Shown here: positions 1 to 17,715 of the stretch, piece after piece
Position numbering within the stretch: position 1 is the stretch's first letter
How the letters are laid out: the number at the start of each line of letters is the position of its first letter
From: Elusimicrobiales bacterium
Lineage (GTDB): Bacteria; Elusimicrobiota; Elusimicrobia; Elusimicrobiales; UBA9959
DNA length: 19,622 bases
Reading direction: 5' to 3'
NCBI GenBank assembly: GCA_049972095.1
Contig: JBMFKQ010000024.1
Span: 7,652 to 27,273, forward strand
Translations under genes and position numbers: made by a program
Notes under the pieces: generated by a model
Database searches by the model: none
The model's input: the letters and a program-made list of their open reading frames with translations, nothing else
Told to the model about the DNA's origin: nothing

Positions 1-1340
1 TTACCATTATCCCATATAAGAATTAACCCTTTATCTTTATCAACCTTGGATGTGATTATTATTTTTTTGTTTTGTTTTGAGTTGAATTTTACTGAGTTTG
101 ATATAATCTCTTTAAACAAAATCCTCATCATATTAGCATCAGCTTTAAATGAAAAACCTTCTATTATATCCTTTTCAAACTCAACATCTCTGTAAATGTC
201 TTTAAACTCAGATATAATCTCCTCTATAATAGCTGTTGAATCAATTAGTGAAAAATTAAGTTCAGATGTATTTTTGTTCTCAATATCTGAATAAAAAAGC
301 ATCCTTTCAACCATACCATTGAGTTCAATCCCGCATGAAAAAATAGCCTCAACAGCCCTTTTTGTTTTCTCATCCCCAGTCTCTGCCCTTTTTAAAATCT
401 GTGAAAAGCCAACTATGCTTGTCAGTGGGGTCTTAAGCTTATGAGATATAAGCGAAAGAAACTCTCTTGATATCCTTGTCTCAATCACCTCTTTCGTAAC
501 ATCGTTAAATATCCAAATAAACTCCTCCTCTTCTTCCATATCATAATTCTTAAAAACCTTGGGGATAAAATTACATCTCAAAATGAGTCTTTTAGGATGA
601 GTTCGCTCAAGCAGAAACTCCTTCTGTTTTTTTTCTATAAACAAATCCTCAAACTCAGTTTCACTTTTAAAACCTCTCAGAAAATCTCTTATATTAAGAG
701 CATTAAAATCTGTAATCCCAAAATAATTTAGACTTGCTTTATTAGCCATCTTTATTCTCCCTGAAGAATCACTTACAATAACACTTTCATTTATCATCTC
801 AAAAATAGTCTCAAGCTTTGATTTTTCATACCTCACGCTATTGAAAAGCCTTGAGTTTTCTATAGCAATTGCTGCCTGAGAAGCAAAGGCTTCAAAGTTA
901 TTCCTGTCAATCTCATCAAATTCCCCATCTATCTTGTTTATAGCCTGAACAACCCCTATAACCCTTCCCTTTATTATCATGGGACAGGTTAGAAGGGATC
1001 TTGTAATATAACCACTTTTTTCATCAACCTTCTTACTATGTCTTGAGTCAGCCTCAGGTGAATTTGATATTATTGACCTTCCCTCAAGGGCACATATCCC
1101 TGCTATACCCTCACCTAATTTGAGTCTTATTTTTTTAACATCCTCCTCCAAATCAAGAGCTACATGAAAATAAAGCTCTTTATTTTTCTCATCAAGAAGA
1201 TAGAGAGAGGCTCTTTCAGAATTAACAACCCTTGTAGCAACCCTCATTATTGTGTGAAGGAGATCTGAGATATCAAGCTTTGATGAAAGTAGACGAGCAA
1301 CTGTAATAAGCATCTCAAGATTTTGATTATCCCCTCTCAT
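1..1340 (-). CDS. GAF-PAS sensor histidine kinase (3' end runs off the window)
   Basis: Not in the ORF track because it has no stop inside the window. Key segments were translated by hand from ATG 1340 and are in one frame: MRGDNQNLEMLITVARLLSSKLD, GAF (LKLGEGIAG, TRSLLTCPMIIKGRVIGVVQAINK), PAS start (LETIFEMINESVIVSDSSGRIKMAN), H-box (FLSLISHKLKTPLTSIVGFSQ), N-box (FKEIISNSVKFN) and G1 (IWDNG) at the edge. Confidence 0.92.
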   Translation of the reverse strand, partial: MRGDNQNLEMLITVARLLSSKLDISDLLHTIMRVATRVVNSERASLYLLDEKNKELYFHVALDLEEDVKKIRLKLGEGIAGICALEGRSIISNSPEADSRHSKKVDEKSGYITRSLLTCPMIIKGRVIGVVQAINKIDGEFDEIDRNNFEAFASQAAIAIENSRLFNSVRYEKSKLETIFEMINESVIVSDSSGRIKMANKASLNYFGITDFNALNIRDFLRGFKSETEFEDLFIEKKQKEFLLERTHPKRLILRCNFIPKVFKNYDMEEEEEFIWIFNDVTKEVIETRISREFLSLISHKLKTPLTSIVGFSQILKRAETGDEKTKRAVEAIFSCGIELNGMVERMLFYSDIENKNTSELNFSLIDSTAIIEEIISEFKDIYRDVEFEKDIIEGFSFKADANMMRILFKEIISNSVKFNSKQNKKIIITSKVDKDKGLILIWDNG

Positions 1341-1343
1341 ATC

Positions 1344-2132
1344 TCAAAAACTCCCACCAACAGATATCTTCCATATCTTTTCATTTGAGATCGATTTATG
1401 ATCAGCAAAATTAAACGATACATCAGCATAGTAATTCTGACTATCATCAAGATATGTTTTAAGCCCAAGGATATAAGAGTTTATATTACTTTTTGAATTT
1501 ATTCTGTCAAACCAGATATAAAGATAGCTATTAAAATCAGGTTTAAAACTTCTCACAAAACTAAAACCAAGCACACTGTAAGGAAGTATGTTGATAAAGC
1601 CTAAAAAAGATGAGTCAAAAAGAATATTTTTATTAAAAAATCCTGCTTTACCCTCCCCTTCTACCCCAATGCCTGAATGAAGCATTATGAAAAACTCATC
1701 ATAATAGTTTCTCTCAAATGAAAAACCAAGAAAAATTGTTTTATCTATAAATGAATTCTTTTCATTTCCATAAGATGAATAGAATGAGTATGTTGAAACA
1801 GTCTCATCCCCATAACGAATGATATCAAAAGAGGCTTTTGCACCATAAAAATTAAAACCATCTTTTGGAAAAAAATAAAAAGGAGATAAAGAAAGACTGA
1901 AACCCTTTGAAAAATAGCTGAATAAAAGTCTTGATAATGATGAGACATCTTTATCGCCATATCTAATGTAGGCTATCCCAACAGCTGTTTTGGTTGAAAG
2001 AATTCTCATGTATGAAAGAGAATAGTTGGAAAAATCCTGTGATGAGTTAGTATACGATGCATCAAAATAGTTCTGTGAAAAGAGTGAAAGTGGGATAAAA
2101 GAAACAATCGAAAGACACAAAATCCTTCTCAT
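1344..2132 (-). CDS. Putative outer-membrane beta-barrel protein of unknown function
   Basis: The better start is ATG 2132 (MRRILCLSIVSFIPLSLFSQ, a signal peptide), just after the upstream stop at 2140. The protein is rich in Ser, Gly and aromatic residues in alternating strands and ends WKISVGGSF, a BAM-type terminal Phe. Confidence 0.7.
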   Translation of the reverse strand: MRRILCLSIVSFIPLSLFSQNYFDASYTNSSQDFSNYSLSYMRILSTKTAVGIAYIRYGDKDVSSLSRLLFSYFSKGFSLSLSPFYFFPKDGFNFYGAKASFDIIRYGDETVSTYSFYSSYGNEKNSFIDKTIFLGFSFERNYYDEFFIMLHSGIGVEGEGKAGFFNKNILFDSSFLGFINILPYSVLGFSFVRSFKPDFNSYLYIWFDRINSKSNINSYILGLKTYLDDSQNYYADVSFNFADHKSISNEKIWKISVGGSF

Positions 2133-2139
2133 AAAAACA

Positions 2140-3429
2140 TCACTTTTCGCCACCTGATACAATCTGCTCAATCCTTTTAAGTGCAGCATCTATATCGGCA
2201 TTTGTAGGATCAAGTTTTTTTGCAATAGTAAGTGATTCCTTTGCCTTCTGATAATCACCACTCTGAAGGTATTTTATACCCTCAAGGTAGTGCTGTTGGG
2301 CAGCCATTCTGTTTTGCTCTGTTACTATATCCTTTTTCTGAACTTCTTGAGCCTGATCATCGGATTGGGAGGTTTGTTGAACCTGCTGTTTTTTCTCCTC
2401 TTCTTTTCTCTTTTTCATCTCTTCCTTTTTCCTTCTCTCCTCTTCCTTCCTCTTCTTAATCTCCGCTTCCTTCTTCATCGCTGCCTTAACCTGCGATATC
2501 ATCTTATCTATCTTTGATGGATTGTCAGAGTATTTCATAGCAAGAGTATATGATTTAATAGCCAGCTGATAATTCTTCTTTTTAAAATAGCTGTTACCAC
2601 TTCGTATGTAGTTGGTCTCTATCTCATTCTTAAGCTCTCCAAAAAGCTTGTTTACCCTCTCATCTGCAGGGTTTATGGTTATGGCTTCTTTGAGAATCGT
2701 ATAAGACTCATCGAGCTTGCCTTGGGAGTATGCCTCAAGAGCAGTTTTGAGCTTCTGATTGACCATATCCTGCCTTATCTCACCCTCTATCTGAGCTATC
2801 TTTAATAGTATATCTTCATCTTTAGCTGCATATTTAACAGCATTATAATACATTACAAGGGCATTTTTTTTATCTCCCGAAGAGTAATAGTTTTCTGCCT
2901 CTGAAACATAGTAGTCCTTAAGATCTCCCTCAATCTTTTTGTACCAATATCTCGCCTTAACATTTTTAGGTGAAAGCCTTGTAAGAACTGCCATTCTCTT
3001 ATAAGCATCAAGTATCTCCCCCTTCTGATAAAGCGAAAGAGCCTCTTCCATCTGTTCATCAAAAGACATACTTCTTGAAACAGATAGTGATGAGCCTTCA
3101 GTTTTAGAGCTTGCTTGAAGAATTATTCTCGCCTCCTCATAAGAAGGATCTATTGAAAGAACCTTTTTTGCCACGGTTGCCGCCCCATCATAATCACCTT
3201 TTTGATAAAGTTCATATGCATTGTCAAGGATCCTTCTAAGAACATAATCCTGAACCTTCTCTTTCTCCTTATAAACAGCTTCAAGAAACATCTTTTTCTC
3301 CTCAACATCATTCAGTTTTTCAAGCCCCACATTGCCAAGCTGCAGAAATGCAGCTGAATCATCCTTAACCTTCTGTGAACAAAGATTTATGTTTGACATA
3401 ATAAATACAGCCACTACTATTAACTTCAT
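2140..3429 (-). CDS. Exported TPR-repeat protein (possible TadD-like/assembly factor)
   Basis: N-terminal signal peptide and multiple TPR motifs (AYELYQKGDYDGAATVAKKVLSIDPSYEEA; GIKYLQSGDYQKAKESLTIAKKLDPTNADI). SD AAGGGGAG upstream. Lies directly after tadC. Confidence 0.85.
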   Translation of the reverse strand: MKLIVVAVFIMSNINLCSQKVKDDSAAFLQLGNVGLEKLNDVEEKKMFLEAVYKEKEKVQDYVLRRILDNAYELYQKGDYDGAATVAKKVLSIDPSYEEARIILQASSKTEGSSLSVSRSMSFDEQMEEALSLYQKGEILDAYKRMAVLTRLSPKNVKARYWYKKIEGDLKDYYVSEAENYYSSGDKKNALVMYYNAVKYAAKDEDILLKIAQIEGEIRQDMVNQKLKTALEAYSQGKLDESYTILKEAITINPADERVNKLFGELKNEIETNYIRSGNSYFKKKNYQLAIKSYTLAMKYSDNPSKIDKMISQVKAAMKKEAEIKKRKEEERRKKEEMKKRKEEEKKQQVQQTSQSDDQAQEVQKKDIVTEQNRMAAQQHYLEGIKYLQSGDYQKAKESLTIAKKLDPTNADIDAALKRIEQIVSGGEK

Positions 3430-3441
3430 ATGCTCCCCTTA

Positions 3442-4338
3442 TCAAAAAGGCATTCCGCCCCTAAGAAGATCAGCCACAACCGGTGCAAGCATTAAGATAA
3501 AAACAACAGGGAATATGAATATAAAAAGAGGTATAAGCATTTTTGTTGATGCCTGAGCTGCAAGCTTTTCGGCTCTTGTAAGCCTTCTAAACCTCATATC
3601 CGCGCTAAAGTTCCTCAACAGATCAACAAGGCTTGTTCCAAGCTCATCACTCTGTATAACAAGTCCAACAAATGATCTAACCTCTTGAAGTCCACTTCTG
3701 TCTGCAAACCTTCTAAGTGCATCCCTTCTCATATATCCGAACTGTATCTCATGAACAAGTCTTTCTATCTCCTTTTCAAGCTCGCTTTTAACAGGAGAGA
3801 TCTTTGCTATCTTATCAAAAGCAGTTATATAATCAAGCCCTGATTCTATCATAAGAGCTGCAAGATCCACAAACTGAGGAAAGTTTTTCAGTATCTCATC
3901 CTGCCTTTTTCGTATTTTTGACATATATATAACATCAGGAATTATAAAACCTAAGGGTGCCATAATAAGAGCCATTAGAGGTGAGCCAAGAATCAAAAAT
4001 ATAAAAACAGGAACAAAGAAGGCAAATCCCTCTTTCATATGAAGTATCTTCAAGGGATCGAGATCTTGGGGGGTTCCAAGAAGTGTGTGCATCCTTTCTA
4101 TCTTTGCTGCAAGCCCAAACCTTTTAGCAAGAAGATAATCTATCTTATCTATAAAACTTCTTGAAGGATCTATTCTATCAAAAGGAGATATCTCTTTTTG
4201 AGCTAAATCCCCTGTTGAAGCTATCAGTGATTTCTCAATCTTTGCAGGAGAAAAAAATCTCTGTGTAAAAACAAAAGTTGCCAGTGAACCAATAACTCCT
4301 AATATTATCAGAACTATATCATAAAGGTTCATAATCAC
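3442..4338 (-). CDS. tadC: Tad pilus inner-membrane platform protein TadC (T2SSF family)
   Basis: Motifs FPQFVDLAALMIESGLD, ELGTSLVDLL and AEKLAAQASTKMLIPLFIFIFP. The GTG start overlaps the tadB stop (GTGA); ATG 4332 is an alternative start. Confidence 0.93.
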   Translation of the reverse strand: MIMNLYDIVLIILGVIGSLATFVFTQRFFSPAKIEKSLIASTGDLAQKEISPFDRIDPSRSFIDKIDYLLAKRFGLAAKIERMHTLLGTPQDLDPLKILHMKEGFAFFVPVFIFLILGSPLMALIMAPLGFIIPDVIYMSKIRKRQDEILKNFPQFVDLAALMIESGLDYITAFDKIAKISPVKSELEKEIERLVHEIQFGYMRRDALRRFADRSGLQEVRSFVGLVIQSDELGTSLVDLLRNFSADMRFRRLTRAEKLAAQASTKMLIPLFIFIFPVVFILMLAPVVADLLRGGMPF

Positions 4339-5873
4339 ACCTTTATCTTACCAAGAGAGGCAACAACCTTTATACCAATACTCATCCATATAAGACAGAA
4401 TACAGCAACTGCAACACCAAAAGGTGTTCCATAAAATTTTATCATCATATCAGGTTGAAAGACAAACATAACAGAAACCATTATCCATGGCATTATAGCA
4501 ACAACTATTGACTGAATTCTTTGCTGTGCTGTTAAAGCCTTTGTCTTTTCCTCAAGCTTTGATTCCTCCCTTATATCGATAACAATCCTCTCAAAAACCT
4601 TTGTAAGATTCCCACCAATCTGTCTTTGAAGCACTATTGCCCTTATCATATAAGAAAGCATTTTACTCTCAATTCTTTCCTCCATCATCGCCAATGCCTT
4701 TTCAAATGGCATACCAAGCTGATAGTTTTTTATAACAAGACCAAATTCATCTGATATTGGTGGAAGCAAATCCTTTGAGACCATCTCAAAGCCCTGTACT
4801 ATATCAAGGCCAGATTTAAGGGAGTTTGACATAAGTATTATTGCATCCATAAGCTGAGCATCAATCTTTTTGCCTCTTATAACCTTAAGTGTATTAAAAA
4901 CAAATCTTGGAAGTCTTAATCCTATGAAAAGACCAACAAGAAGGAAAAGAAAAAACAAAAATACATTCATCGTTAAAATACCAAGAAGTCCAAAAAGTAT
5001 AACAGGAATACCAACAAGATAGTTTATATTGACCTCAAGGAACTGTCTTGAAAACTCCTCCTTCCACTTCTCAACCTTCTTTTGATAATCATCAATCAAT
5101 CTCTTTGTTTTTTCTTCATTTAGAACAAAAAAAAGCATTACACTAACAAAGACAATAACTGCTGAAAGAAGACCAAAAATCCTCCACAGAAGTATCTTCA
5201 TCTTATTAGTAGGAGGTGCAGGCTGATAAACCCTTGATGACTTGAATATAAGGCTGAAAGCATCCTGTGAAAACACACTTATTGCAACAACTGCTGTATT
5301 ATATTTTTTAGGATCGGATGTTGCTATGGACTCAAGTATTGCCTCCATCTCCTTTAGTATAAGATTAAAAACAGCAAGAATTGTTCTCCCCCTTCCATCA
5401 AAGGAATTAAAAAGCTTTGCCCTATAAAGCCTGTCAAGCGACATCTGAAATCTTATCTTTACATCGGCATACTCCTTAACAAGAAGTGCTGGTGGTATGC
5501 CAGGCCCACCCTCTTCAGGTGGGAATGTCTTTTTTGTAACCTCAAGAAATTCATAGATTATTGAAACTGATGTCCTCCATAGATCTGCCTCAGATACCTC
5601 TCCCTCCTCAGGATCCCTCCAAACCTTTTTTGCAATCATCTGCGAAAGGGTTGAATCAATCCAGCCCGGCATTACATATCTAACATCCCTTCCTTTGCAG
5701 TTGAATTTGAAATCATTTATCTCTGGGCTTCTGTCAGGCTTTAGATAAAAATAAAAGAGCTGCATCTTGGTTGATGCACACTTTATCTCCTGAATCTGAG
5801 ATTTTGAAAAAATAGCAGCCTCGGCATCTAAAAAACACAAAAAAACAACAAAGACTGAAAATAAAACTCTCAT
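4335..5873 (-). CDS. tadB: TadB (T2SSF family) with an extra N-terminal exported domain of about 205 aa
   Basis: C-terminal TadB motifs QLMDAIILMSNSLKSGLD, PPISDEF, QRQIGGNL and KALTAQQR. N-terminal signal peptide (AEA|A) plus a soluble domain before the TM at about aa 227-251. Confidence 0.9.
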   Translation of the reverse strand: MRVLFSVFVVFLCFLDAEAAIFSKSQIQEIKCASTKMQLFYFYLKPDRSPEINDFKFNCKGRDVRYVMPGWIDSTLSQMIAKKVWRDPEEGEVSEADLWRTSVSIIYEFLEVTKKTFPPEEGGPGIPPALLVKEYADVKIRFQMSLDRLYRAKLFNSFDGRGRTILAVFNLILKEMEAILESIATSDPKKYNTAVVAISVFSQDAFSLIFKSSRVYQPAPPTNKMKILLWRIFGLLSAVIVFVSVMLFFVLNEEKTKRLIDDYQKKVEKWKEEFSRQFLEVNINYLVGIPVILFGLLGILTMNVFLFFLFLLVGLFIGLRLPRFVFNTLKVIRGKKIDAQLMDAIILMSNSLKSGLDIVQGFEMVSKDLLPPISDEFGLVIKNYQLGMPFEKALAMMEERIESKMLSYMIRAIVLQRQIGGNLTKVFERIVIDIREESKLEEKTKALTAQQRIQSIVVAIMPWIMVSVMFVFQPDMMIKFYGTPFGVAVAVFCLIWMSIGIKVVASLGKIKV

Positions 5874-5875
5874 AG

Positions 5876-8074
5876 TCAGCTTCTTAATCTTTGTTTCTTT
5901 TGCTCCTCAGTCCAGAATATCTCAACAGGAAGATCTATACCATGAGTCTTAAAATCATGGAAAAACTTTGGAGGCTCACCTGTCGCTGTAAAATAGCCTA
6001 AGATCTTTCCATTTTCATCTATACCTGTTTGAACAAATTTGAAAATCTCATGAGTAAGTATCTGATTTTCTTCTCTTCCTGTTATCTCAACTATTGATGT
6101 AACCTTCCTTGAGCCATCTGAAAAACGAGTGAGCTGAACTATTATATGAACCGCGCTTGCTATCATTTCTCTTAATGCCCATATAGGCAGATCAGCACCA
6201 GCCATTAAACACATAGCCTCAAGCCTTGTTAAAGCATCCCTTGGCGAGTTTGCGTGAATCGTTGCAAGAGAGCCCTCATGGCCTGTGTTCATAGCCTGTA
6301 ACATATCAAGAGCCTCTGCACCCCTAACCTCACCAACCACTATCCTGTCTGGCCTCATTCTCAGGCAGTTTCTCACAAGGTCCCTTATTGTAACCTCACC
6401 TTTACCCTCAATGTTAGGTGGGCGTGATTCAAGCCTCACCCAGTGCTCCTGCTGAAGTTTGAGCTCTGCAGTATCTTCAACAGTTATTATTCTCTCATCC
6501 TCAGGTATGTATGATGAGCACATATTTAAAAATGTAGTTTTACCTGTACCTGTACCACCAGATATTATTATATCTTTTCTTAGCCTAACACAGGCTTTAA
6601 TAAACTCAACCATCTCAGGTGAGACACTCCCCTTGGCAATAAGATCCTTATCAGTAAAGGGTTTTTGTGAAAATCTTCTAATTGTAAGCGTTGGCCCGCT
6701 GACAGCAAGGGGGGGGATTATACCATTTACTCTCGAACCATCCTTAAGTCTTGCGTCAACCAAAGGGACTGATTCATCTATCCTTCTTCCAAGAGGAGCA
6801 ACTATTCTTTTTATAACCTGAATTATCTGATCCTCATCCCTAAATCTGTATTTTGTCTTTATAAGCTTACCATTCCTCTCTATATATATTTTGTCAGGAG
6901 CATTAACCATAATCTCAGTAATGCTTGGATCCCTCATAAGCTCCTCTATTGGTCCTAAGCCAAGAATCTCATCAAGAAGCTCTGATATAAATTTTGTTCT
7001 CTGCTCTCTTGTTAAGGGGTATTGAGTCTCTTTTTGAAGAAGTGAGTTTATTACGCTGTCAACCTTTTTTCTGAGCTCCTGATTCTGTGAAGGGTCATCA
7101 CTTATCTTTATCCTTTCAGTTTCAAGCACTCTGACAACATCACCATGAATCTTCATCTTAAGATCCTCCCACCATGGTGGGAGCTCTATTTGTGATTGCT
7201 GTTTTATCTGAAAGGAGTCTGAGGTCGATGAAAACTCTAAAGTTCTGTCAACAGGCTTCCACAGAAGATCGCTCCCATGAGAAAACTCAACCTGACTTAT
7301 TACACTACTCCATGTTTTTTCGCTTGCCTCAACCTCTATAATCCTTGCTATGATGCTCTTTAGTATTTTTATCCATTGACAGTTTGGATCCTCAACCACA
7401 AGGAGTTTATTCTGATTCAAAAATGCTCCAAGTTCATCCTCCCAAGGCAGAAATGCAAAAACCTCCTTTCCAATCTGCTTAAAAAATTTCTCAACATCCT
7501 TTGGAGAAAGAGAGCCTGGAAGATCGTAAAGATTTACAACAACCTCGAACCTTGATAGAGGGAAATGCATCTCATTGATATCTTTAAATATATTTGCTGT
7601 TGCACTTAAAGCAGATGTCATAGAGTTTGTAATCCAGAATACAAGATCAGATATATCAAATGAAAAAAATTGCATTGGATAGTATGGATCCACATCTATG
7701 AATATATCAAAATACTGTGATAGTTTTGAAAGAAGACCACTCAATATATCAGGAGAAAGCTTTAAAAAATCCTGCCTCTTCTTAGCAAGAGGAAGAACCC
7801 CAACCCCCCATGATGATATCGGTATCTTCCCCTTTATAAGCATAGCAGTACTTGTTATAGACTCTCTTCCAACAACTTTTAACAGATCAACAACAGAAGG
7901 GGTATTTGCCACCCCAATAAGTTTGTCATGTTCATATCTTCCCATATGGTCCATTGGTATTATAAGCACATTTCTGTTTTCAAGATGAGCATATGCAACA
8001 GCGCTGTTTACAGCAATAGATGTCTTCCCAACCCCTTCTTTTGGTCCTGTGAATGTTATTACCTTGTTTGCCAT
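5876..8074 (-). CDS. tadA: Fused CpaE/TadZ (MinD/ParA-like) and TadA/CpaF pilus ATPase
   Basis: N-terminal deviant Walker [11 protein letters not shown]. The C-terminal part has [20 protein letters not shown], Walker [16 protein letters not shown], Walker [13 protein letters not shown] and the His box [13 protein letters not shown]. Confidence 0.95.
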
Positions 8075-8075
8075 C

Positions 8076-8792
8076 TTACTTTATTATCTCAAAAGTTAGA
8101 AAAAGAAAAAGTGAACTTTGATCCTCTAATACATCTTTTGATCTAAAAAGAGCACCTATAAGAGGTATGCTTCCAAGTATAGGGACTTTGTTTATAGACA
8201 TATTCCTTGTACTTTTTTTAAGACCACCAATAACAACTGTCTCTCCACTTTTTATCTCAACCTCTGTATGTATCTGTCTTGTTATCATTGATGGAATTGT
8301 GGTATTTTGAACAACGACAGGTTTTGAATAATCTGGATTTGAAACCTCAAGAGCTATTTGAACATCAACAGTTTCTTTTTTATTAGGAACCAATGTTGGA
8401 AGAACCTGAAGGATCACTCCAAATTTCTTAAACTCAGCACCTACCCCCTGGTTGTTCGAATATGGTATTGGTATCTCACCACCAACAGTGAAGTCCGCTT
8501 GCTGCCCGTTTTTAACAACAACCTTTGGATTTGACAGAAGCTGGGCTTTACCCTCCGTCTCAAGAATCTTGAGTGAGGTTTGAAGCTGTGTTTTCCTCTC
8601 AAAATCACCAATGGTCAAGATACCAGGTATGCTTTTCTCTATAAAATCAAACATCTGGTTCCATCCAAAACCCACGGTTTTCTGAACAGACCCACTTATC
8701 TCAACTATATCAGCACTTACAGCTATCATCACATCCTGAGCACTAAGCTGTGTTGAAAAAGAGATAAAAGCTATAAGAAAAATCTTTTTCAT
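8076..8792 (-). CDS. cpaC: Minimal secretin (RcpA/CpaC-type; secretin domain only)
   Basis: Secretin motifs LETEGKAQLLSNPKVVVKNGQQADFTVGGEIPI, FGVILQVLP, SGETVVIGGL and KVPILGSIPLIGALFRS. Signal peptide present; SD AAGGGAG. Confidence 0.9.
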   Translation of the reverse strand: MKKIFLIAFISFSTQLSAQDVMIAVSADIVEISGSVQKTVGFGWNQMFDFIEKSIPGILTIGDFERKTQLQTSLKILETEGKAQLLSNPKVVVKNGQQADFTVGGEIPIPYSNNQGVGAEFKKFGVILQVLPTLVPNKKETVDVQIALEVSNPDYSKPVVVQNTTIPSMITRQIHTEVEIKSGETVVIGGLKKSTRNMSINKVPILGSIPLIGALFRSKDVLEDQSSLFLFLTFEIIK

Positions 8793-8804
8793 AATATCTC
8801 CCTT

Positions 8805-9560: not shown

Positions 9561-9580
9561 ATCATCTCCTTTTTAAAAAA

Positions 9581-10066
9581 TTAAAAACTTGATGTTTGAA
9601 ACAACGGTTTTTCTATCGGCATTCTAACAGTCACAGTTATTCTTTTTATATGTCTATTTTTTGGAGGATCAGCAAGAAAATAATTTGGACCCGGCAGAAT
9701 CAAATGAACAGGATAATTCAGTGTTACAACAAAATCCTCAGTCTGATGCTGTGTTCCAACCTGCGGATCATAACCGGTGGTCTCTATATTCGTTGTCATA
9801 ATAACCTCACCACAGGATGCTCCAAATATCTCACACTTAACAGATTCAAGCTTTGATTGATTGATCTGAGACTGAGTACTACTACTCCCCCCAGGCGGGC
9901 CCGCAAGAAGAGAACCTATCCTTGCCAGCTCATAGGCTGCATGATTTACAACTATCACCTTGTGAGCAAGAAGTCCGAGCTCCATTATAAAAAAAAGCAT
10001 CAGAAAAAATATAGGCAACACCAACAAAACCTCCACAACAACCTGTGCTATTCTTCTTTGCATCAC
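9581..10066 (-). CDS. tadE: TadE-family pseudopilin
   Basis: RRIA|QVVVEVLLVLPIFFLMLFFIMELG followed by AAYELARIG, the TadE-type AAxExAR motif. Start is GTG 10066 or ATG 10063. Confidence 0.88.
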   Translation of the reverse strand: MMQRRIAQVVVEVLLVLPIFFLMLFFIMELGLLAHKVIVVNHAAYELARIGSLLAGPPGGSSSTQSQINQSKLESVKCEIFGASCGEVIMTTNIETTGYDPQVGTQHQTEDFVVTLNYPVHLILPGPNYFLADPPKNRHIKRITVTVRMPIEKPLFQTSSF

Positions 10067-10072
10067 AAAAAA

Positions 10073-10264
10073 TTACTGGTTTCCCCCACCTGCCCCAAGG
10101 CTTGATGCAGCACCACTTATCATCTGTTGTATTTGAGCAAAAAGAGAGGGCATATACTTTTTTATAAGCATTCCAACTATGAGAACAACCCCTACAACAA
10201 CAGCAAGCATAAGAAGATACTCTACGGTGTTTTGAGCCCTTCTCATCTTTAAAAACCCTTTCAT
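10073..10264 (-). CDS. flp: Flp-type major pilin candidate (class III signal peptide)
   Basis: 63 aa: MKGFLKMRRA|QNTVEYLLMLAVVVGVVLIVG, with E+5/Y+6. Strong SD AAGGAGG and its own promoter. Confidence 0.85.
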   Translation of the reverse strand: MKGFLKMRRAQNTVEYLLMLAVVVGVVLIVGMLIKKYMPSLFAQIQQMISGAASSLGAGGGNQ

Positions 10265-10268
10265 TCCA

Positions 10269-10275
10269 CCTCCTT
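10269..10275 (-). promoter_or_regulatory. Shine-Dalgarno site of flp
   Basis: AAGGAGG, 4 nt before ATG 10264. Confidence 0.8.
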
Positions 10276-10289
10276 TTATTTATATTTAC

Positions 10290-10317
10290 ATTATAGCACA
10301 ATTATATAAAATTTCAA
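10290..10317 (-). promoter_or_regulatory. Sigma70-type promoter upstream of flp
   Basis: TTGAAA (10317-10312), a 16-nt spacer ending TGTGC, then TATAAT (10295-10290). This is a perfect extended -10 (TGnTATAAT). Confidence 0.75.
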
Positions 10318-10318
10318 C

Positions 10319-10480
10319 TCAATAGTTCTCTTTATACATTCTGAGTATCATCACACCACCGCGTTCAAACTGCCTTGCCACGGCCCATTGAAGTGCTTTG
10401 TGCATTATAACAAAGACTACAACAAGAACAAGTGTTATAAGTATATACTCCACCGTTGTCTGAGCATTTCTTTTATACAT
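10319..10480 (-). CDS. Second Flp-like pilin (53 aa; absent from the ORF track)
   Basis: Hand translation: MYKRNA|QTTVEYILITLVLVVVFVIMHKALQWAVARQFERGGVMILRMYKENY*. It has a basic leader, E+5/Y+6 and a hydrophobic helix. The ATG is 1 nt after the stop of the PorV-like gene. Confidence 0.85.
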   Translation of the reverse strand: MYKRNAQTTVEYILITLVLVVVFVIMHKALQWAVARQFERGGVMILRMYKENY

Positions 10481-10481
10481 A

Positions 10482-11432
10482 TTAGAACTGCATCCTTAGC
10501 GTAAGCTGCGAAGTCTTTCCAAGCTCCCCATATGGGGTAAAAGAGTACTCTATCCCGTAAGCCTTTCCAAGAATTTGCGATGAATAAACCCCAACACCAA
10601 AAGACCAACCACTTATATCATCAAGACCAAGCTTTTTTAAAAAAGAATCATCGTAGTTCTTTCCATAATTAGGTGATTTATTATAACCTGTTCTTAAAAC
10701 AAATCTGCCATACTGAAGCATCTCCTCAGGTATTACAAACTCAGCACCAAAACCAATTTTTTTATCAGAATCAGAAAAACTGATTGAATCAAGGCTCAAA
10801 ACAAGATGATCACCAAGGGAAATTGATCCACCCCAGCGTCTGATCTCAACTATTTTTTTATTATCAGATGATATATTCTGTCTTGAAACTCCCAATCTAA
10901 TTCTTCTTCCAAGTTTTAAAACAGCACCAACATCATAAGCAACACCACTATCCTTTTTCAGATATCTATCCTCATAAACATATCTTGCTGCTGCACCTAT
11001 TGAAAATCTCTCCATAAAAAACGATTTTGCAACAGAAAAAGAAGCACACATATTTTTAAACTTAACATCATCAGCGTTTATATTCACCCCACTGGAATCC
11101 CTTATCTCAAAACCATCTGTTGAAAAATAACCAACATCAATTCCTAAAACACTTGTGCCATAAGGTTTCACATAGGATATATATTTCCCATCAAAATCCT
11201 CAATCCAGTTTATCACCGAAAACTCAATCTCCCTCATCTGAGAAAAACCAATCCCTGCAGGGTTTATCCTCATTGCATCTGTCCCTTCAAGAAGCGCAAT
11301 ACCATTACCTCCAAGCCCCTGCATCCTGGATGAACCAAATGGCAGTTTAAGAAATGCAAAGCCACTTGTGCTATCAGCATATACAAGTCTCAAAGAAAAG
11401 AAAAGCGCTATTATTAAAGATAATCTCTTCAT
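10482..11432 (-). CDS. PorV/PorQ-like (UPF0164/FadL-superfamily) outer-membrane beta-barrel
   Basis: Signal peptide, then the plug motif GFAFLKLPFGSSRMQGLGG...DAMRINPAGIG. Ends YSFTPYGELGKTSQLTLRMQF. Likely start ATG 11432, with GAGGTG upstream. Confidence 0.8.
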   Translation of the reverse strand: MKRLSLIIALFFSLRLVYADSTSGFAFLKLPFGSSRMQGLGGNGIALLEGTDAMRINPAGIGFSQMREIEFSVINWIEDFDGKYISYVKPYGTSVLGIDVGYFSTDGFEIRDSSGVNINADDVKFKNMCASFSVAKSFFMERFSIGAAARYVYEDRYLKKDSGVAYDVGAVLKLGRRIRLGVSRQNISSDNKKIVEIRRWGGSISLGDHLVLSLDSISFSDSDKKIGFGAEFVIPEEMLQYGRFVLRTGYNKSPNYGKNYDDSFLKKLGLDDISGWSFGVGVYSSQILGKAYGIEYSFTPYGELGKTSQLTLRMQF

Positions 11433-11441
11433 AACCACCTC

Positions 11442-14400
11442 TTAAGGTATAAGAATCTTTTTCCTAAACTGACATCTTTCTTTAGTTCCATCAGCACTAA
11501 GCATCTTAAACACTGCATAGTATACTCCCGGTGCAAGTTTAGCAGCATCTCTATTTTTTGAAAAAACAAGCCTTACATCCTCCATACATCCATTTGTATC
11601 CTGAGTTGATGTTTTTCCTGAAAGGCAATCACCCCTTGTTCTGTCTCGTGGACCTATTCCGCTTGGGTAATAATCCTTTGAGTTATAAGAATAAACCTTC
11701 TCGCCAGCAAGGTTATATATCCTCACCTCATAATGTCCTATTGCAGGAAGCCCTAACTTAAAAAAACCATTGTCCATAGTCATTGGATTTGGCGCAAAGT
11801 ATGAGTTCTTTTTAAAATAATCACAGACATCATCTATATACCCTTGAGTGACAGGTATATAATAAAGACTTGTGCTGTCACCACTATATCTAAGAACATC
11901 ACAGCTATTTGTTCCATCAACACAATCACCTGTTATATCATCTATCAGAGTTGAGTCAGTTGAGGCAATGATCTTAAATACATATAGTCCAGATTTTACA
12001 TTTGAGTTTGTAATATCAACATTCCCATACCAGGACTCATTTATAAGTGTTCTTCCAGGTCTTGTTCCTATGATCTTGTCTACAAGGCAGGACTCCTCAC
12101 CTGTCCCGCCACTACAGATAGGCTCTGTTCCAATAAATGATGTTCCAGGTTTGTATATCTTTATTGAAACCTTCATCGTCTCAGAAATCTGGTAGCTTAT
12201 CTGTGCAGGGGCATCTGGGATAAGAGGTGCTATTGCAAGATCATAAAGCCTAAAGGGATAGTTTTCAACAGTTATGGTAACTGTCGTTATCTGAAGGGGC
12301 TTGTTTGGATTTGCATAGAGATCCCTGGCATAGATGTTTATATTGTAAAGTGGCTCAGCTCCACTTCCTCCTATCATCCACTCACCGTTTTTACATGTAG
12401 TTGGGCTATCCGGCTGGAAACACCTTCCATCCCAGTAATCCTTATAAGAGATAAATGGATCTCTTACGGCATTATCAGTAATCTTTGCAACAACCTTTCC
12501 ATTATAGAAATCAGTAACCTTTATACTAACAGCAGCATATCTTGAGACAGAATATTCTATCTGATGGGGAGGCAGTTTGACAACCTCGCTTGAGTTATGA
12601 AGTGTTGCTATGTCAGGTGTTACATTAAAACTTAAGAAAACTATCTTTCCCTTTGAAACATCAATATAGCCATATGCCTTATCCTGAGCATATATCTTCG
12701 TAGTTCCAGTAGTGTATGCAACAATTGTAAAGGGATATCTTCCATCATCAACAACATATCCATTCTCATCCCTTCCATCCCAGTACTCAGTAACCTTGTA
12801 TCTTCCAGGCCTCATACCAGATACTGAATATATGATGTTATTAGGCAATATATAACCTCCACTCTCCCACGGCCAGTCGTTTGGATTTATCTCAAAATCC
12901 TGTTTGTATATCTTGAGGTCAACCCACATACTCTGTGAAAGCTGATAGCTTACAGCAGCCAACGTTGAAAAACCTATGATATGCTGAGGGACTACATCAA
13001 CTATTCTAAAAAGATTAACATTGAAATCAGCTTTGTGTGTAAAAAGATTATTGGTAGCACAAGCATATGGATCTCTTATGGTTAAATTCGCCATATATGT
13101 TCCAGCTGAAGCCCAGCTTCCATCATTTGTTTTCCCATCCCAGGTTAGATTATGATCTATTCCACTTGACATCGGCTCATCTTGAGCAATGGTTCTTATA
13201 GTATTTCCGTTCATATCCTTTATAATAAGGGTAGCAGATGATGGCCTTTGAAGGCGGAATTTGAAAAAGAAAGGGTTTAGCCCAGCAGCTGTAGGAGAAG
13301 ATCCTATAACAGTAGTCGAAGGGGTTAAAAATCCAAGAGGGTCTCCCTTTGCTATTGCAACATTGCCAACAGAAAGCCTCTGTGTCCATATACTTCCACC
13401 CTCACCAGGCATCTCAGCTGAAAGAGCAAAAACATAGTTTCCATCGCATAGATAATTTCCATTTGAGTCCTTACCATCCCAGTAAAAACTCACAGTCTGC
13501 CTTCTTGATTTGATGTCAGAATAGCTTCTAAGAGGTGGGTTTGAAGGATTGCATGATGGTGATGTTGATCTTGCAGCGCAGTTTATATTGTCAAAAGTTG
13601 TATTCGGTGGGTATATATCAAGATAAACTGTCGCATCCTCAGTAAGCATAAAGCTTATTATTGCAACATCAGTTGCAAGAGGTCCAAGATCCTTTACAGA
13701 TACATCGGTTATCTGAAGTGGCTCTATACTTATATTGTCTGTATACTCCTGTGCATTATCCCAGCCATAACTATCTCGGGCAGATGCTTTTATTCTGTAA
13801 AAATATGTCTTTGGTTGAACAAACTGCCCACTATTATTTCTACCATCCCAGAAGTCGCCATTTGTAAGGGTTCCATCTGGCTTAATCTCACCAAACCTTG
13901 GAGCAGAGTTCTGTATTGTTCTTATTACATTTCGAGGTGGATCCTCTATTGTTATTGTCACTGTTGCATCCTTTGAAAGTCTATAGAGTATATTATATGG
14001 TGCTGCACCAACACCAGTGATCTTTCCAACAACCGTTGGTGTGGCTTTAACAACATGTATATTTGTTACATCAACAGTTATTGGGTTTTGATTTTGACCA
14101 GGAAATGCTGATGTCTGCTGTATATTTATGTTCCCTGCGGTTGGAGATACCTCATTTGTTCTAACCGTAACCCTAAATCCAAACTGACCATTAGTCTTTC
14201 CCCAAAAACCATCAACATTGTAGGAGCCATCCCATGCAGTGCAGTAAGGACCCGTTGTTATTTCAGCAGCAGTGCTTAAATTAAATGAAAAAACATTGTG
14301 CATTGAAATTGTTCTGATTGGAGGGGTTGATGATGGGTCAAGTGGATTTGCCCCAGCCTTAAACTTAAATATCTCAAATGTAAGATCATCAACACCCATT

Positions 14401-14678
14401 GTTGTATCAGCGGTTGTTTCTACAACAGCAGTAATCCATGCACAAAGAGCAACGCAGCTTCCAGGATAGCCTGCAGTCACCCTATCAAACTCTATTCTTG
14501 CTCCAGTAGAATTTGAAACAACTGATCTATCTATAGGATTATCTCCTACCCTATAATCATCACAGTAATTTGAACCTCCTTCTTTTGGTCCTGCAACCAC
14601 TATGCTAGATACATAAAGCTGCTGTGAATAAAGAGAAGTTTTAACTAAAAACAAAAATATAGCTAAATACTTTATCAT
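11442..14678 (-). CDS. Large secreted FlgD-Ig-like repeat protein with a T9SS-CTD-like C-terminal domain
   Basis: Signal peptide and seven repeats carrying W(D/Y)G. C-terminus FAPNP...VRIYNLAGEKV...LAPGVYY...KKILIP. Many closely spaced Cys pairs. Confidence 0.8.
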   Translation of the reverse strand: MIKYLAIFLFLVKTSLYSQQLYVSSIVVAGPKEGGSNYCDDYRVGDNPIDRSVVSNSTGARIEFDRVTAGYPGSCVALCAWITAVVETTADTTMGVDDLTFEIFKFKAGANPLDPSSTPPIRTISMHNVFSFNLSTAAEITTGPYCTAWDGSYNVDGFWGKTNGQFGFRVTVRTNEVSPTAGNINIQQTSAFPGQNQNPITVDVTNIHVVKATPTVVGKITGVGAAPYNILYRLSKDATVTITIEDPPRNVIRTIQNSAPRFGEIKPDGTLTNGDFWDGRNNSGQFVQPKTYFYRIKASARDSYGWDNAQEYTDNISIEPLQITDVSVKDLGPLATDVAIISFMLTEDATVYLDIYPPNTTFDNINCAARSTSPSCNPSNPPLRSYSDIKSRRQTVSFYWDGKDSNGNYLCDGNYVFALSAEMPGEGGSIWTQRLSVGNVAIAKGDPLGFLTPSTTVIGSSPTAAGLNPFFFKFRLQRPSSATLIIKDMNGNTIRTIAQDEPMSSGIDHNLTWDGKTNDGSWASAGTYMANLTIRDPYACATNNLFTHKADFNVNLFRIVDVVPQHIIGFSTLAAVSYQLSQSMWVDLKIYKQDFEINPNDWPWESGGYILPNNIIYSVSGMRPGRYKVTEYWDGRDENGYVVDDGRYPFTIVAYTTGTTKIYAQDKAYGYIDVSKGKIVFLSFNVTPDIATLHNSSEVVKLPPHQIEYSVSRYAAVSIKVTDFYNGKVVAKITDNAVRDPFISYKDYWDGRCFQPDSPTTCKNGEWMIGGSGAEPLYNINIYARDLYANPNKPLQITTVTITVENYPFRLYDLAIAPLIPDAPAQISYQISETMKVSIKIYKPGTSFIGTEPICSGGTGEESCLVDKIIGTRPGRTLINESWYGNVDITNSNVKSGLYVFKIIASTDSTLIDDITGDCVDGTNSCDVLRYSGDSTSLYYIPVTQGYIDDVCDYFKKNSYFAPNPMTMDNGFFKLGLPAIGHYEVRIYNLAGEKVYSYNSKDYYPSGIGPRDRTRGDCLSGKTSTQDTNGCMEDVRLVFSKNRDAAKLAPGVYYAVFKMLSADGTKERCQFRKKILIP

Positions 14679-16336
14679 AATCTCTCCCTGTTTTTAATCT
14701 TATAAACCTCAATCCTTTTAGATGAGACCATATCTTTAAGAACATAAAGTTCATCATTATATAAATAACAATATACAAAATTTTTTACCTTTTGAACTGA
14801 CTTTTTTACAAACCTATCATTGTCAAACTTAAATCTGTAAAGCCTTGAGTGAGAAAGAACAATAAGATTATCATTCATCCAGAAAATCCCATCAACACTT
14901 TTTATACCGTCAAGCTCATATGTTTTAACAGCTTTGATCTCTGAATTGATCTCATATCTTTGAAGGACCTTGCCTATCCCATCAAAACACCAAAGAAAGT
15001 TTCCATCAGATGAAAGCCCACCAGGTGCATATGTAAGAGATCTTACAGATGTTATCATAGATCGAGTTTCAGGATCAAACTTGATAAATCTAACTGAGGA
15101 CAGATCAAAAAACCATAGATAATCCCCTTCACGAGAGATAACTGCTGGTTTTATTCTCTGAGATGATATTTCTGATATAAGATCGATGTTTTTAAGATTC
15201 TCATCCTTGACAACTATTCCCTTTGATGGATCTGTGAAAAAATAAAAACCTTCATTCTTAACAAAAGATGTGTATGAGTTGCTTTCAAGGGTTGATGAGG
15301 AGATCATAGAAAGATGAATCTTTCTTGAGTAATCATAAGATATGTATCCAATACCTGTAAGCAGAAAAACACCAAGAAGACTAAATGCAAATATTCTTTT
15401 CATTCTGCTTTCCACCTTTTTCTTTACACCATCAAGCGATGTTAGAATATGAGGCAGAACTATCTCTTTGTTTGCATAGAGTTTTAAAAGCTCACCTACC
15501 TTATATGACCACTTTGAGGACTCCTCAAGAACCTCAGCAAGTTTTCTGACATTTTCAACACCCTTTGACTCCTCATCTTTAAGAATTTTAAGCCATGCCT
15601 CCCTTTCATTTCTAAGCCTCTCCTCCCAAACAGCAAACTCCATTCTGTGTGACTCCCACATTGATCTTTCTCTCTCCCACATCTCCTTCCACTGCTGTCT
15701 TTCGCTATCCCATGCTGATTTTATTGACTCTATCTGTTTTTTTAGCTCCTCGTTTTCTTTAATAGACTCATTAAGTCTTGCTGAAATATCATTAACCTTC
15801 TTTCTTTCAGCAAAAAGTTCAGAAACTGTATTTTCAACTGCTTTTTTTGCATCTGAAAGCTGGCTTTCTATCATGGAAAGCTTAGATTCAAGGGCTTGTT
15901 TTTCCACAGCAAGTCTTGAGTTTTGCTGTTTAAGTAGCTTTCTTTCCTCTTTTAGCTGTGAGATCTCTTTTGAAAGCTCATCTATATCCCGTTTGGTTCT
16001 TTCAAATATACCCTTCAAAAGATTTATCTCTTTCTGGTGTTTGTCTTTTTGCTTTATAAGGATGTTTTTTGACTCCTCTATCTCTACAACAAGCTTTCTA
16101 TTTTGGGAAAGGATCTCATCTTGAGATCTTGACTGCTCAGCCTTAAGCTCTTCAATAAATCTCTCAAGCTCTATAATTCTCTCATTGAGTTTTTTAATAG
16201 TCTCATCCTTCTGTCTCAAAGCTGCTTCATATTCAAGGGATTTCTCCCTCATCCTCTTTTCAAGATAATCTATTACCTCGAAGGATGGGAGCTCTCTTTC
16301 TGGAAGTCCAAACCCATATATATCTATATCACTCAT
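14675..16336 (-). CDS. Membrane protein: cytoplasmic coiled coil, single TM, C-terminal beta-propeller-like domain
   Basis: About 280 aa of E/K-rich heptads, a TM segment (IFAFSLLGVFLLTGIGYISY), then blade-like repeats (EGDYLWFFD, PGGLSSDGNFLWCFD, DGIFWMNDNLIV). ATGA overlap with the downstream gene. Confidence 0.75.
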   Translation of the reverse strand: MSDIDIYGFGLPERELPSFEVIDYLEKRMREKSLEYEAALRQKDETIKKLNERIIELERFIEELKAEQSRSQDEILSQNRKLVVEIEESKNILIKQKDKHQKEINLLKGIFERTKRDIDELSKEISQLKEERKLLKQQNSRLAVEKQALESKLSMIESQLSDAKKAVENTVSELFAERKKVNDISARLNESIKENEELKKQIESIKSAWDSERQQWKEMWERERSMWESHRMEFAVWEERLRNEREAWLKILKDEESKGVENVRKLAEVLEESSKWSYKVGELLKLYANKEIVLPHILTSLDGVKKKVESRMKRIFAFSLLGVFLLTGIGYISYDYSRKIHLSMISSSTLESNSYTSFVKNEGFYFFTDPSKGIVVKDENLKNIDLISEISSQRIKPAVISREGDYLWFFDLSSVRFIKFDPETRSMITSVRSLTYAPGGLSSDGNFLWCFDGIGKVLQRYEINSEIKAVKTYELDGIKSVDGIFWMNDNLIVLSHSRLYRFKFDNDRFVKKSVQKVKNFVYCYLYNDELYVLKDMVSSKRIEVYKIKNRERL

Positions 16337-16398
16337 ATCAGTTGAAAGTTTAACAAACCATAATTAAATTAGAATTAAAACCATATTAATTTTTTGTT

Positions 16399-17715
16399 TC
16401 AATCTTTTGTCAATAATAAAAGCTCAAAACTTGCCTCGCTTATATCTATACCGCTGTTCTGGTATGTTGATATCACTTTTTTGAGATAGTTTATCAAGGC
16501 TGTTTTTGATGTATTTTCCATTTTAAGTTTTCTATATATCTCCATCTCTCTATCAAACTCCCTTTTTATAAGTTCAAGCTTCTGCTGCTGTCTTTTTCTC
16601 TCAAGATTTTCAAGATCCTCTTTTTCTTTTTTTTGTCTTTCAACAATACTGTTTAGAGTATTTAAAACTCTCTGGTTTTCCTTTACTAAATTTTCTTTAT
16701 CCGCTTTTTCTTTTTTGAGTTCTTTTTCTATCATCTCTATCTTGTATCTAAGTTCATCAGTTTGAGAAGAAAGCTCTGATATGTTTTTTTTGAGTTTTTC
16801 CTCCCTTTTCGCTGCCTGTGAAAGCTCATCAAGAAGATCCTTTCTATATTTTATCTCCCTTCTTATTATCTTTTCATACTCACTTTCTACATCCTGTCTT
16901 CCCCAGTAAAGGGTTATACCAAAAGAGCTGTTTATATAGCTTGGTTTATTAAGCATTGCTGAAAGCGAAAAAGAAAACTCCCATACCTCCCTGTTATAGA
17001 AAACACCAAAAGAAAGCCAATTAATGATAGAAGAAAAAGACATGGATGTGGAAAGCCTGAAATAACCATAGCGATAGGTTCTTATTATCTGGGATGCTGA
17101 AAACGAGCTAACAAAAGAACTCTTATCCTCAAAGCTGCTTTTGGAAATTGTCAAGCCCACTAAATAATCAGATATAAACCTTGAGACTGAAAATGAAATG
17201 CTTTCTGGTATTCCATATTTATATCCTCCAACACCAGCGTTCAAATTCTCAAATGAAAAACTTCCAACATAATCCTTTTTTCTCACAATAAACCCTCCAT
17301 CATAGCTGTTTTTTGATTCAAAACCATCTGCTTTTGAGATTCTTTTAAGAGAAAAACCTATATCCATATAACTATCCTCCATATCAAAAGCATGATAACT
17401 AGCAAAGCCTATTCTCTTAACCTCAGAGCTGAAATCTCTAAACCTCATCCTTTCATAGCCTATCATATATGTAAGATTTTTCCCTTTAAAAACCGATGGA
17501 TAAAAAAATGCAAAAGAGCTTGAACGATACTTCCTTTCAAAACCTTTTTCGTGTTTTATATCAGCATATGAGGCTGATGTTGTTATGTTTCTTATATCAC
17601 CAAATGTTGTAGGATTTGACATAATAGGAAAATAACTTACACAAAGTCCATAACCTTCTGAATAAGGATCTAATGAGTAGAGAAAAGAAAAGATAAACAT
17701 AATCACTTTAAACAT
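16399..17715 (-). CDS. Putative outer-membrane beta-barrel fused to a C-terminal coiled coil
   Basis: Short signal-like N-terminus, about 260 aa of Ser/Phe/Gly-rich alternating strands ending SFGITLYWG, then about 165 aa of E/K-rich helix. Confidence 0.6.
   Translation of the reverse strand: MFKVIMFIFSFLYSLDPYSEGYGLCVSYFPIMSNPTTFGDIRNITTSASYADIKHEKGFERKYRSSSFAFFYPSVFKGKNLTYMIGYERMRFRDFSSEVKRIGFASYHAFDMEDSYMDIGFSLKRISKADGFESKNSYDGGFIVRKKDYVGSFSFENLNAGVGGYKYGIPESISFSVSRFISDYLVGLTISKSSFEDKSSFVSSFSASQIIRTYRYGYFRLSTSMSFSSIINWLSFGVFYNREVWEFSFSLSAMLNKPSYINSSFGITLYWGRQDVESEYEKIIRREIKYRKDLLDELSQAAKREEKLKKNISELSSQTDELRYKIEMIEKELKKEKADKENLVKENQRVLNTLNSIVERQKKEKEDLENLERKRQQQKLELIKREFDREMEIYRKLKMENTSKTALINYLKKVISTYQNSGIDISEASFELLLLTKD

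Follow-up and report, generated by a model that had tools for sequence, protein, structure and literature searches.

A Tad pilus locus of the class Elusimicrobia headed by a type IX-like cargo protein and its PorV-family barrel

The window, i.e., the whole stretch of DNA analysed here, comprises 19,622 nucleotides of an Elusimicrobiales bacterium genome (source genome G000, window G000:C24:7652-27273; L and G numbers denote the loci and genomes of the comparison set), which is 1.44 Mb in size and 96.5% complete. It carries a Tad/Flp pilus locus directly preceded by two genes, one for a cargo protein with a C-terminal domain (CTD) of T9SS (type IX secretion system) type and one for a PorV-family barrel. 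The run of 15 consecutive minus-strand genes described in a sequence-only reading of this DNA was confirmed in the list of open reading frames (ORFs) as 15 minus-strand ORFs across 3-17715, with gaps from top to bottom of 62, -4, 3, 1, 54, 6, 20, 12, 1, 2, -4, 12, -50, and 3 nt; the two largest gaps (62 and 54 nt) and the 1-nt gap between porV and the first pilin were as described. Pfam and NCBIfam scans also upheld the family assignments of the cargo, PorV-like barrel, pilins, TadE, RcpC, secretin, TadZ-TadA, TadB, TadC, tetratricopeptide repeat (TPR) protein, and kinase. The genes at the centre of this study are as follows.

11442..14678, minus strand: g03, 1078-aa cargo with a signal-peptide-like start, seven WDG/WYG FlgD-type immunoglobulin (Ig) motifs, and a C-terminal T9SS-type CTD (family and profile matches)
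10482..11438, minus strand: g04, PorV-family barrel (NF033709, 89.2 bits; cut-off 90)
10319..10480, minus strand: g05, Flp-like pilin 1 (PF04021, E 0.0016, 18.7 bits, below the cut-off of 23.7; conserved in relatives)
10073..10264, minus strand: g06, second Flp pilin and likely the major one (PF04021, 25.2 bits; cut-off 23.7)
9581..10066, minus strand: g07, TadE-like minor pilin (PF07811, E 7e-10)
8805..9560, minus strand: g08, RcpC/CpaB, terminating just past domain D2 (TIGR03177, 102.6 bits; cut-off 71)
8076..8792, minus strand: g09, 238-aa secretin, core only, with neither N nor S domain (PF00263, E 7e-43)
5876..8074, minus strand: g10, TadZ-TadA fusion ATPase, 732-aa ORF (CbiA/ParA, PF01656, in the N-terminal part, and T2SSE, PF00437, E 2e-66)
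4335..5873, minus strand: g11, TadB, extended at the N terminus by a helical-bundle domain of 205 residues that is predicted to be periplasmic (T2SSF, PF00482)
3442..4338, minus strand: g12, TadC (T2SSF, PF00482)
2140..3429, minus strand: g13, TPR protein at the tadD position, clear lipobox not seen by eye (TPR match)

The order of these genes is kept throughout the class Elusimicrobia. A search with the ATPase led to 23 loci, which carry the titles Elusimicrobia or Elusimicrobium (17), 'bacterium' (2), Micrarchaeota (1), and Omnitrophota or Planctomycetia (3). The class-level sample comprised 38 distinct loci (20 from this search and 20 from another, two duplicates dropped), five of which end before the pilins, leaving 33 informative loci. 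In the synteny comparison that had been proposed for relatives, the cargo and then the barrel stay directly upstream of the pilins in 32 of these 33, and the conserved core in the same 32/33 consists of the CTD cargo, PorV-like barrel, two pilins, tadE, rcpC, the 238-aa secretin, the tadZ-tadA fusion, long tadB, tadC, and the TPR gene; the exception, L043, is another kind of tad locus. The pair is present as two genes in 31 of the 32, with the end of porV 829-1549 nt ahead of rcpC, and as one run-together ORF in L017. This apparent cargo-PorV fusion was rejected as such and is read as a small deletion or an assembly error, because the last CTD strand is missing and the PorV signal peptide is retained. 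Neighbours on both flanks change while the cargo-porV-pilin order holds. The suggested tie of four upstream genes to tad stands for the cargo and PorV (32/33 loci) but not for g01 and g02, which are not constant.

A sample of 161 genomes from the phylum gave 67 with the long TadB; the cargo was recovered in 64 of these and in no others. Coordinates were listed for 63 genomes, in which the cargo and the long TadB lie on one contig in 50 and are split over contigs in 13; the cargo is less than 13 kb upstream on the same strand in all 50 one-contig genomes, and one of the 13 split cases was seen to be linked once its DNA was fetched. The cargo gene itself varies, being expanded by repeats to a 4044-aa frame in G054 (C12) and tandemly duplicated in G006 (C4) and G014 (C4). 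The contig titled Micrarchaeota (L001) carries this tad locus at 73-90% protein identity (89% in the ATPase search) and is probably misbinned.

The likeness of the pair to type IX components was supported by several comparisons. The cargo g03 matched FlgD_ig (E 1e-26), CHU_C (PF13585, 31.3 bits; cut-off 27), and TIGR04183 (23.9 bits; cut-off 23), and a profile of 16 CTDs matched PorU, PorZ, and SprA-bound CTDs in the PDB (6za2, 5m11, 8glk_D, 8glj_D) as well as FlgD. A profile of 33 paired barrels matched PorV (6h3i_F, E 2e-13), and in the single-sequence family scan of g04 only PorV/PorQ models, and none of the PorP/SprF family, appeared at E 0.1. The source genome holds nine CTD proteins and 12 PorV-family matches in 11 genes, six of which lie directly behind a CTD cargo.

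Of the further T9SS components for which a genome search had been proposed, an SprA-like gene was found, whereas the PorU enzyme was not, and GldM and GldN gave no match in searches whose control genomes were silent as well. The SprA-like pore is a 1750-aa protein on contig C28 that is distant and shorter (TIGR04189, E 6.5e-39, 133 bits, cut-off 200); its profile matched SprA 6h3i_A at E 1.2e-37, and a single SprA-like gene is present in 145 of the 161 genomes. When the SprA-like protein and g04 were each used as a single query sequence, the PDB gave no match, whereas the profile searches did. GldM was matched in 0/161 genomes, and neither GldN nor a C25 peptidase was matched in the source genome; since the control genomes were equally silent in all three cases, the sensitivity of these searches is uncertain. 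PorU models matched in 6/161 genomes, all only at model positions 861-1094, the CTD end, and none over the cut-off. Judging by the sequence features tested, the pair resembles a T9SS cargo on a dedicated carrier, and the system is not a full T9SS. By analogy, g04 is likely the carrier and anchor of its own cargo, and export of the cargo via the SprA-like pore followed by surface anchoring is likely in the light of Bacteroidota.

Two small genomes that are nearly complete, G064 on one contig and G068 on two, have the Tad-linked cargo as the sole protein with an FlgD_ig or CTD-profile match, and the best of the three PorV-family matches in G064 lies at the Tad locus. The search covered three more small genomes: a different CTD protein is present in G011, G048 gave no match, and G040 has the cargo tail. 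As for genomic context, most loci fetched have the SprA-like gene (L064:3633-8885, G000:C28) in divergent orientation to an lptF/lptG-like pair, and a ComF-like gene often comes after it (labels assigned by eye). In three small genomes of family f12 (L074-L076), sprA shares a strand with tadE-pilin-rcpC-tadZA-tadB-tadC and lies ~2 kb upstream of them, a distance of ~17 kb in G085.

The Tad half of the locus differs from known systems in its secretin, RcpC, and TadB. The N-domain-less secretin of the sequence-only reading is real and conserved: in the class members aligned, nothing separates the signal peptide from the core, which extends no further than its last strand, and in other classes at most a short segment precedes it. 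The best 120 database matches are 228-260 aa long, and the structure model (predicted local distance difference test, pLDDT, 75) matches RcpA (8odn_A, E 5.7e-15) and other secretins. In Pseudomonas, the N domain of RcpA binds the C-terminal hairpin region of RcpC and the S domain binds TadD (PMC10499894, 10.1101/2024.10.29.620805). RcpC stops just after D2 in the present locus, and the Omnitrophota/Planctomycetia loci have 526-563-aa secretins and RcpC tails of ~50 residues. Secretins without the N domain are also present in loci without the cargo.

The long TadB is likewise real and conserved (67/161 genomes), and its extension is predicted to be periplasmic, as had been claimed. The extra domain is modelled as a four-helix bundle with an N-terminal addition (pLDDT 93). 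Structure searches with it gave no Atlas match and no Foldseek match at E 0.001; the best VIA matches were designed bundles (Z 9.8) and McpS (Z 8.9, root-mean-square deviation 3.3, 111 aligned), with scores under the bar for helical bundles, and a sensor role is therefore not claimed. Complex prediction of RcpC with this domain scored 0.16 against a mark of 0.32 and thus speaks neither for nor against a contact. In three stand-alone genes (L094:5166-6783, L095:4996-7131, L096:5692-7038), the TadB domain is fused to RcpC-D2 (TadB part E 7e-61 to 4e-28), and such domain fusions suggest that the extra TadB domain and RcpC may touch. These stand-alone fusions are secreted, and two of them are preceded by an ECF-sigma-like gene together with another RcpC-D2 gene. 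The TadZ-TadA fusion, put forward as part of the undescribed apparatus, is real and conserved, but it is found phylum-wide and has been described in Bdellovibrio (10.64898/2026.07.08.737194), and thus is not new. TadV and TadG are not in the locus, and the only A24 peptidase above the cut-off in the source genome is a 258-aa ORF of PilD length on contig C22. The TPR gene occupies the tadD position, with a lipobox that, judged by eye, is not clear in g13 and not seen in a relative. A Tad-like region was reported previously in Endomicrobium and Elusimicrobium minutum (PMC8809381).

Outside the clade with the long TadB, members of the cargo family were again found beside secretin genes. A profile of the cargo repeat unit gave matches in 73/161 genomes and, outside that clade, 13 cargo loci in 11 genomes. 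A secretin gene, of Tad type or PilQ, is no more than 5 kb away in 8 of these loci and no more than 8 kb away in 10. The layouts are varied: four loci are behind pilMNOPQ (L103, L105, L110, L111), three beside a short secretin and tadA (L104, L106, L109), two inside tad loci (L034, L050), and one 6.4 kb from a 409-aa secretin (L114), while two of the remaining three are on 1.7- and 4.7-kb contigs and the third is without a secretin in 9.8 kb upstream. In seven out-of-clade loci the cargo lies directly against the secretin gene (0.03-2 kb). In four genomes, 5/5 cargo-paired PorV genes are within 6 kb of a secretin, compared with 0/65 other PorV-like genes. The paired barrels fall into three supported clades (0.957, 0.976, and 0.989, with 0.957 for the clade of g04) in a FastTree tree of 89 of the 104 sequences, from which 15 class-level copies had been thinned out. 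This recurring placement makes a pilus-related job of the pair likely.

Consensus matching identified the following candidate promoter sites.

10290..10317, minus strand: sigma-70-like site between the two pilins (11 of 12 plus TG; consensus match only)
17739..17767, minus strand: promoter-like site 24 nt upstream of g01 (10 of 12; consensus match only)

Promoter-like sites overall were not above chance (69 vs. 56.8, standard deviation 8.3), and the signal scan found no terminator-like site between porV and the pilins. A site like the inter-pilin one is present in 4/26 relatives, and a site of at least 9.5 at the junction of porV and pilin 1 in 6 of the 16 relatives scored, a count made without a shuffle control. 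Read-through combined with an internal start for the major pilin appears likely from these signals.

What was observed directly is the genes with their order and family assignments, the presence of an SprA-like gene, and the recurrence of the cargo family beside secretin genes. The locus belongs to the Tad family, in which its secretin, RcpC, and TadB are variants, and it carries an optional accessory; it is not a proven hybrid machine. Of the composite apparatus initially claimed, the cargo-PorV pair upstream of the pilins, the SprA-like pore, and the rewired Tad parts stand, but a single composite machine is not supported. The explanation that we favour, at about even chances, is a class-wide Tad pilus whose secretin is reduced to the core, whose TadZ and TadA are fused, and whose TadB is long; at the head of its cluster, an SprA-exported Ig-repeat cargo and PorV-like barrel would form an optional surface accessory beside the pilus channel, used in attachment. 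Whether the pair acts at the same site as the pilus we regard as equally balanced between yes and no.

By analogy with Bacteroidota, the cargo would cross the inner membrane by Sec, and its CTD would be caught inside SprA by loops of its own barrel. As no PorU was found that could cut the CTD, the cargo may stay bound to the barrel and form a rod in which at least seven Ig domains follow one another. As in other Tad systems, TadZA on TadB/TadC would build Flp pili through the RcpC ring and the secretin, and the pilins would be processed by the PilD-type peptidase on another contig. Gene order by itself suggests that rod and pilus might act at one site, with the retracting pilus bringing a surface or a cell to the rod. 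Based on the domain fusions, the extra TadB domain might brace the RcpC ring and thereby stand in for the lost contact of the RcpC hairpin with the secretin N domain. More tentatively, and on balance rather unlikely, a motor-less type IX pore could plant the poly-Ig rod on its own PorV barrel at the outer mouth of the pilus secretin as a collar or co-adhesin, with the reduced lineage keeping the entire SprA pathway for this single pilus part and the smallest possible secretin tied to the inner membrane by the TadB-RcpC brace and not by N domains.

Several findings weigh against placing the pair at the pilus channel. The class-wide order belongs to one clade and therefore counts as one long-kept junction; it is one inherited event. 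Cargo-PorV pairs are common in the source genome (6 adjacent pairs), and poly-FlgD proteins also occur in Gram-positive Acetivibrio, meaning that the repeat itself is not type IX specific. The cargo tail is kept in G040, a 98% complete genome with 0 SprA matches. The cargo is absent from 8/8 other short-secretin loci and 9/9 other PilQ loci examined (17/17). In family f12 it was recovered in 0/49 genomes, although TadB-like genes are present in 39 of them, secretins in 42, and SprA in 34. The cargo copy in G004 has no secretin in the 9.8 kb upstream, its contig ending in porV, and two weaker cargo relatives (L187, L188) have none within the stretch fetched. A single clade for all secretin-linked barrels was rejected, as the three clades do not join in the tree. 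The four control genomes were picked for holding such loci, and only the zero (0/65) is thus unbiased. Finally, the best promoter-like site of 18.2 kb lies between pilin 1 and pilin 2, so that the pilus half may have its own start; such an internal start would weaken the notion of one operon, yet would leave pilin 1 with porV in the source genome.

Among the rival explanations, a serious but doubtful one is that the pair is an ordinary SprA-exported adhesin placed in pilus operons for joint timing, co-regulated and never touching the secretin or pilus. That the pair accompanies different secretin types is as compatible with joint regulation as with a common binding site, and many secretin loci lack the cargo; yet in the seven out-of-clade loci the cargo abuts the secretin gene and is not at operon heads generally, and it is kept where other CTD cargo has been lost. 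The rod and barrel might otherwise serve as an outside-in assembly factor or collar stabilising secretins in place of the missing N and S domains and a lipoprotein pilotin. This would suit a secretin that is without both domains binding RcpC and TadD in Pseudomonas, and a cargo family whose common neighbour is a secretin gene, but equally short secretins do without cargo in f12 and elsewhere and four cargo copies lie behind full-length PilQ, which makes this idea unlikely.

It is quite unlikely that one of many cargo-PorV cassettes simply landed upstream of tad in the class ancestor, the order being merely inherited. The eleven PorV-like genes of the source genome would provide such cassettes, and a HAMP-domain gene likewise follows the locus across the class, where kin are not independent; flanking genes, however, have been lost or moved while the porV-pilin junction holds, and the linkage to secretins is repeated in other classes with other layouts, against 0/65 control barrels. 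Very improbable, in our view, is a true hybrid machine in which the Tad ATPase and pseudopilus export the cargo via the secretin, or pull cargo and barrel out of SprA in place of the GldLM motor. The lack of GldM matches (controls silent too), the energy needed for release from SprA in Flavobacterium, where the CTD binds carrier loops inside SprA (PMC10994853), and the closeness of sprA to tad genes in L074-L076 would agree with it. However, SprA and secretins (152/161 genomes) are both present, SprA occurs in families without a TadB match (f3 3/3, f21 7/7), and the sprA-tad closeness looks like loss of the genes in between, given the ~17 kb in G085. The related idea that SprA replaces the secretin was rejected because of the secretins in those 152 genomes.

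Compared with the type IVc (Tad/Flp) pilus known from Pseudomonas aeruginosa and from Caulobacter (RcpA-TadD structure 8ODN; RcpC ring), the locus shares Flp pilins, TadE, RcpC, secretin, TadZ, TadA, TadB, and TadC in canonical order. It differs from the Pseudomonas system, as far as the available texts describe it, in a secretin without the RcpC-binding N domain and TadD-binding S domain, and from both in an RcpC without the long C-terminal tail, the extra TadB domain, the lack of tadV and tadG in the locus, and the cargo and barrel in front. The Tad system of Bdellovibrio bacteriovorus (10.64898/2026.07.08.737194) shares the TadZA fusion ATPase and the lack of TadV in tad loci; its genes are scattered, and the part of that report available describes no cargo-PorV pair or core-only secretin. 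With the Bacteroidota T9SS (SprA, PorV, type A CTD cargo; 6H3I, 8GL6-8GLN; PMC10994853), the SprA-like pore, PorV-family barrel, and type-A-like CTD are shared. In contrast, the pore here has 1750 aa instead of 2403 aa, the PorU enzyme was not found, GldM and GldN were not found (control genomes being equally silent), many PorV paralogues each follow a cargo where Bacteroidota have one shared PorV, and the phylum is outside the FCB group, in which reviews place the T9SS, naming the GldLM motor as what powers it (PMC11205867, PMC10994853). Type B CTD cargo with PorP/SprF barrels (SprB-SprF; PMC9143113, PMC12618676), which remain on dedicated barrels, share one cargo gene with an adjacent dedicated barrel and, presumably by analogy, lasting surface anchorage without sortase; the barrel here is of the PorV family and not PorP, and the partner is a pilus and not a gliding track. 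The literature search, with most subscription papers out of its reach, yielded nothing that treats T9SS components in Elusimicrobiota or connects PorV with Tad. The words secretion, pili, and tad are absent from the main text of 10.1101/765248, though its supplements could hold gene tables, and the available parts of PMC12204202, PMC8542988, and PMC9324843 hold nothing on either subject.

A phylum-wide SprA-PorV-CTD set that has no recognisable motor and seems to serve a pilus accessory would show that the pathway can be simpler and that two export machines can be connected. The small genomes with this cargo as the only CTD protein found would be a one-substrate system for asking how cargo leaves SprA without GldLM. 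Moreover, the 220-residue mature secretin would be a natural minimal pore for testing which roles need the N and S domains.

The remaining genes of the run flank the conserved core.

16399..17715, minus strand: g01, divergent PorV-like barrel (residues ~30-250) with a C-terminal coiled coil (hhalign 97.9% and 99.1% to PorV profiles; coiled-coil family matches)
14675..16336, minus strand: g02, coiled coil, one transmembrane segment (315-333), and C-terminal beta-propeller (Atlas model, TM ~0.7 to propellers)
1344..2189, minus strand: g14, 281-aa protein without a family, adjoining the locus only in the nearest relatives
3..1340, minus strand: g15, GAF-PAS-HisKA kinase, cut by the window edge, 512 aa in the genome (family scan)

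The descriptions of g01 as barrel-coiled coil and g02 as coiled coil-propeller were supported in the PorV-like N-terminal part of the former and the C-terminal propeller of the latter. The gene g01 is present in 11 distinct loci, only part of the class, and g02 in 20 class loci; g02 is missing from 6 loci with enough flank and from all of the 50 genomes of family f2 (0/50). The kinase had been taken as the end of the cluster; together with g14, which had 0 matches to Pfam or NCBIfam families or PorV profiles, it stands behind the locus in only 2 distinct relatives and is not a conserved part. In most relatives the TPR gene is followed by the HAMP-domain gene, which is on another contig in the source genome. 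As an outer-membrane barrel with a coiled-coil tail and an inner-membrane coiled-coil/propeller protein, g01 and g02 could form a trans-envelope tether, and a pair resembling them is located at G000:C30:15011-17447.

Other pilus- and barrel-related genes were also noted. Several f12 tad loci (L044, L063, L076, L078) have a different barrel-like gene of ~430 aa (PorV/TraF-like) after tadC. In the source genome, the stretches C22:22583-29062, C8:44660-48999, and C2:35817-44721 hold two more secretin/pilus loci, none with a gene of the g03 family, and, among the same stretches, a 529-aa CTD protein adjoining a PilB-like ATPase and a prepilin peptidase. At G000:C23:11613-21187 (L068), a CTD protein, a PorV-TPR barrel, a kinase, and MotA/MotB-like genes form one run. 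Beyond the minus-strand run, the ordinary genes xseA and xseB (exonuclease VII) occupy 18084-19522 of the window on the plus strand.

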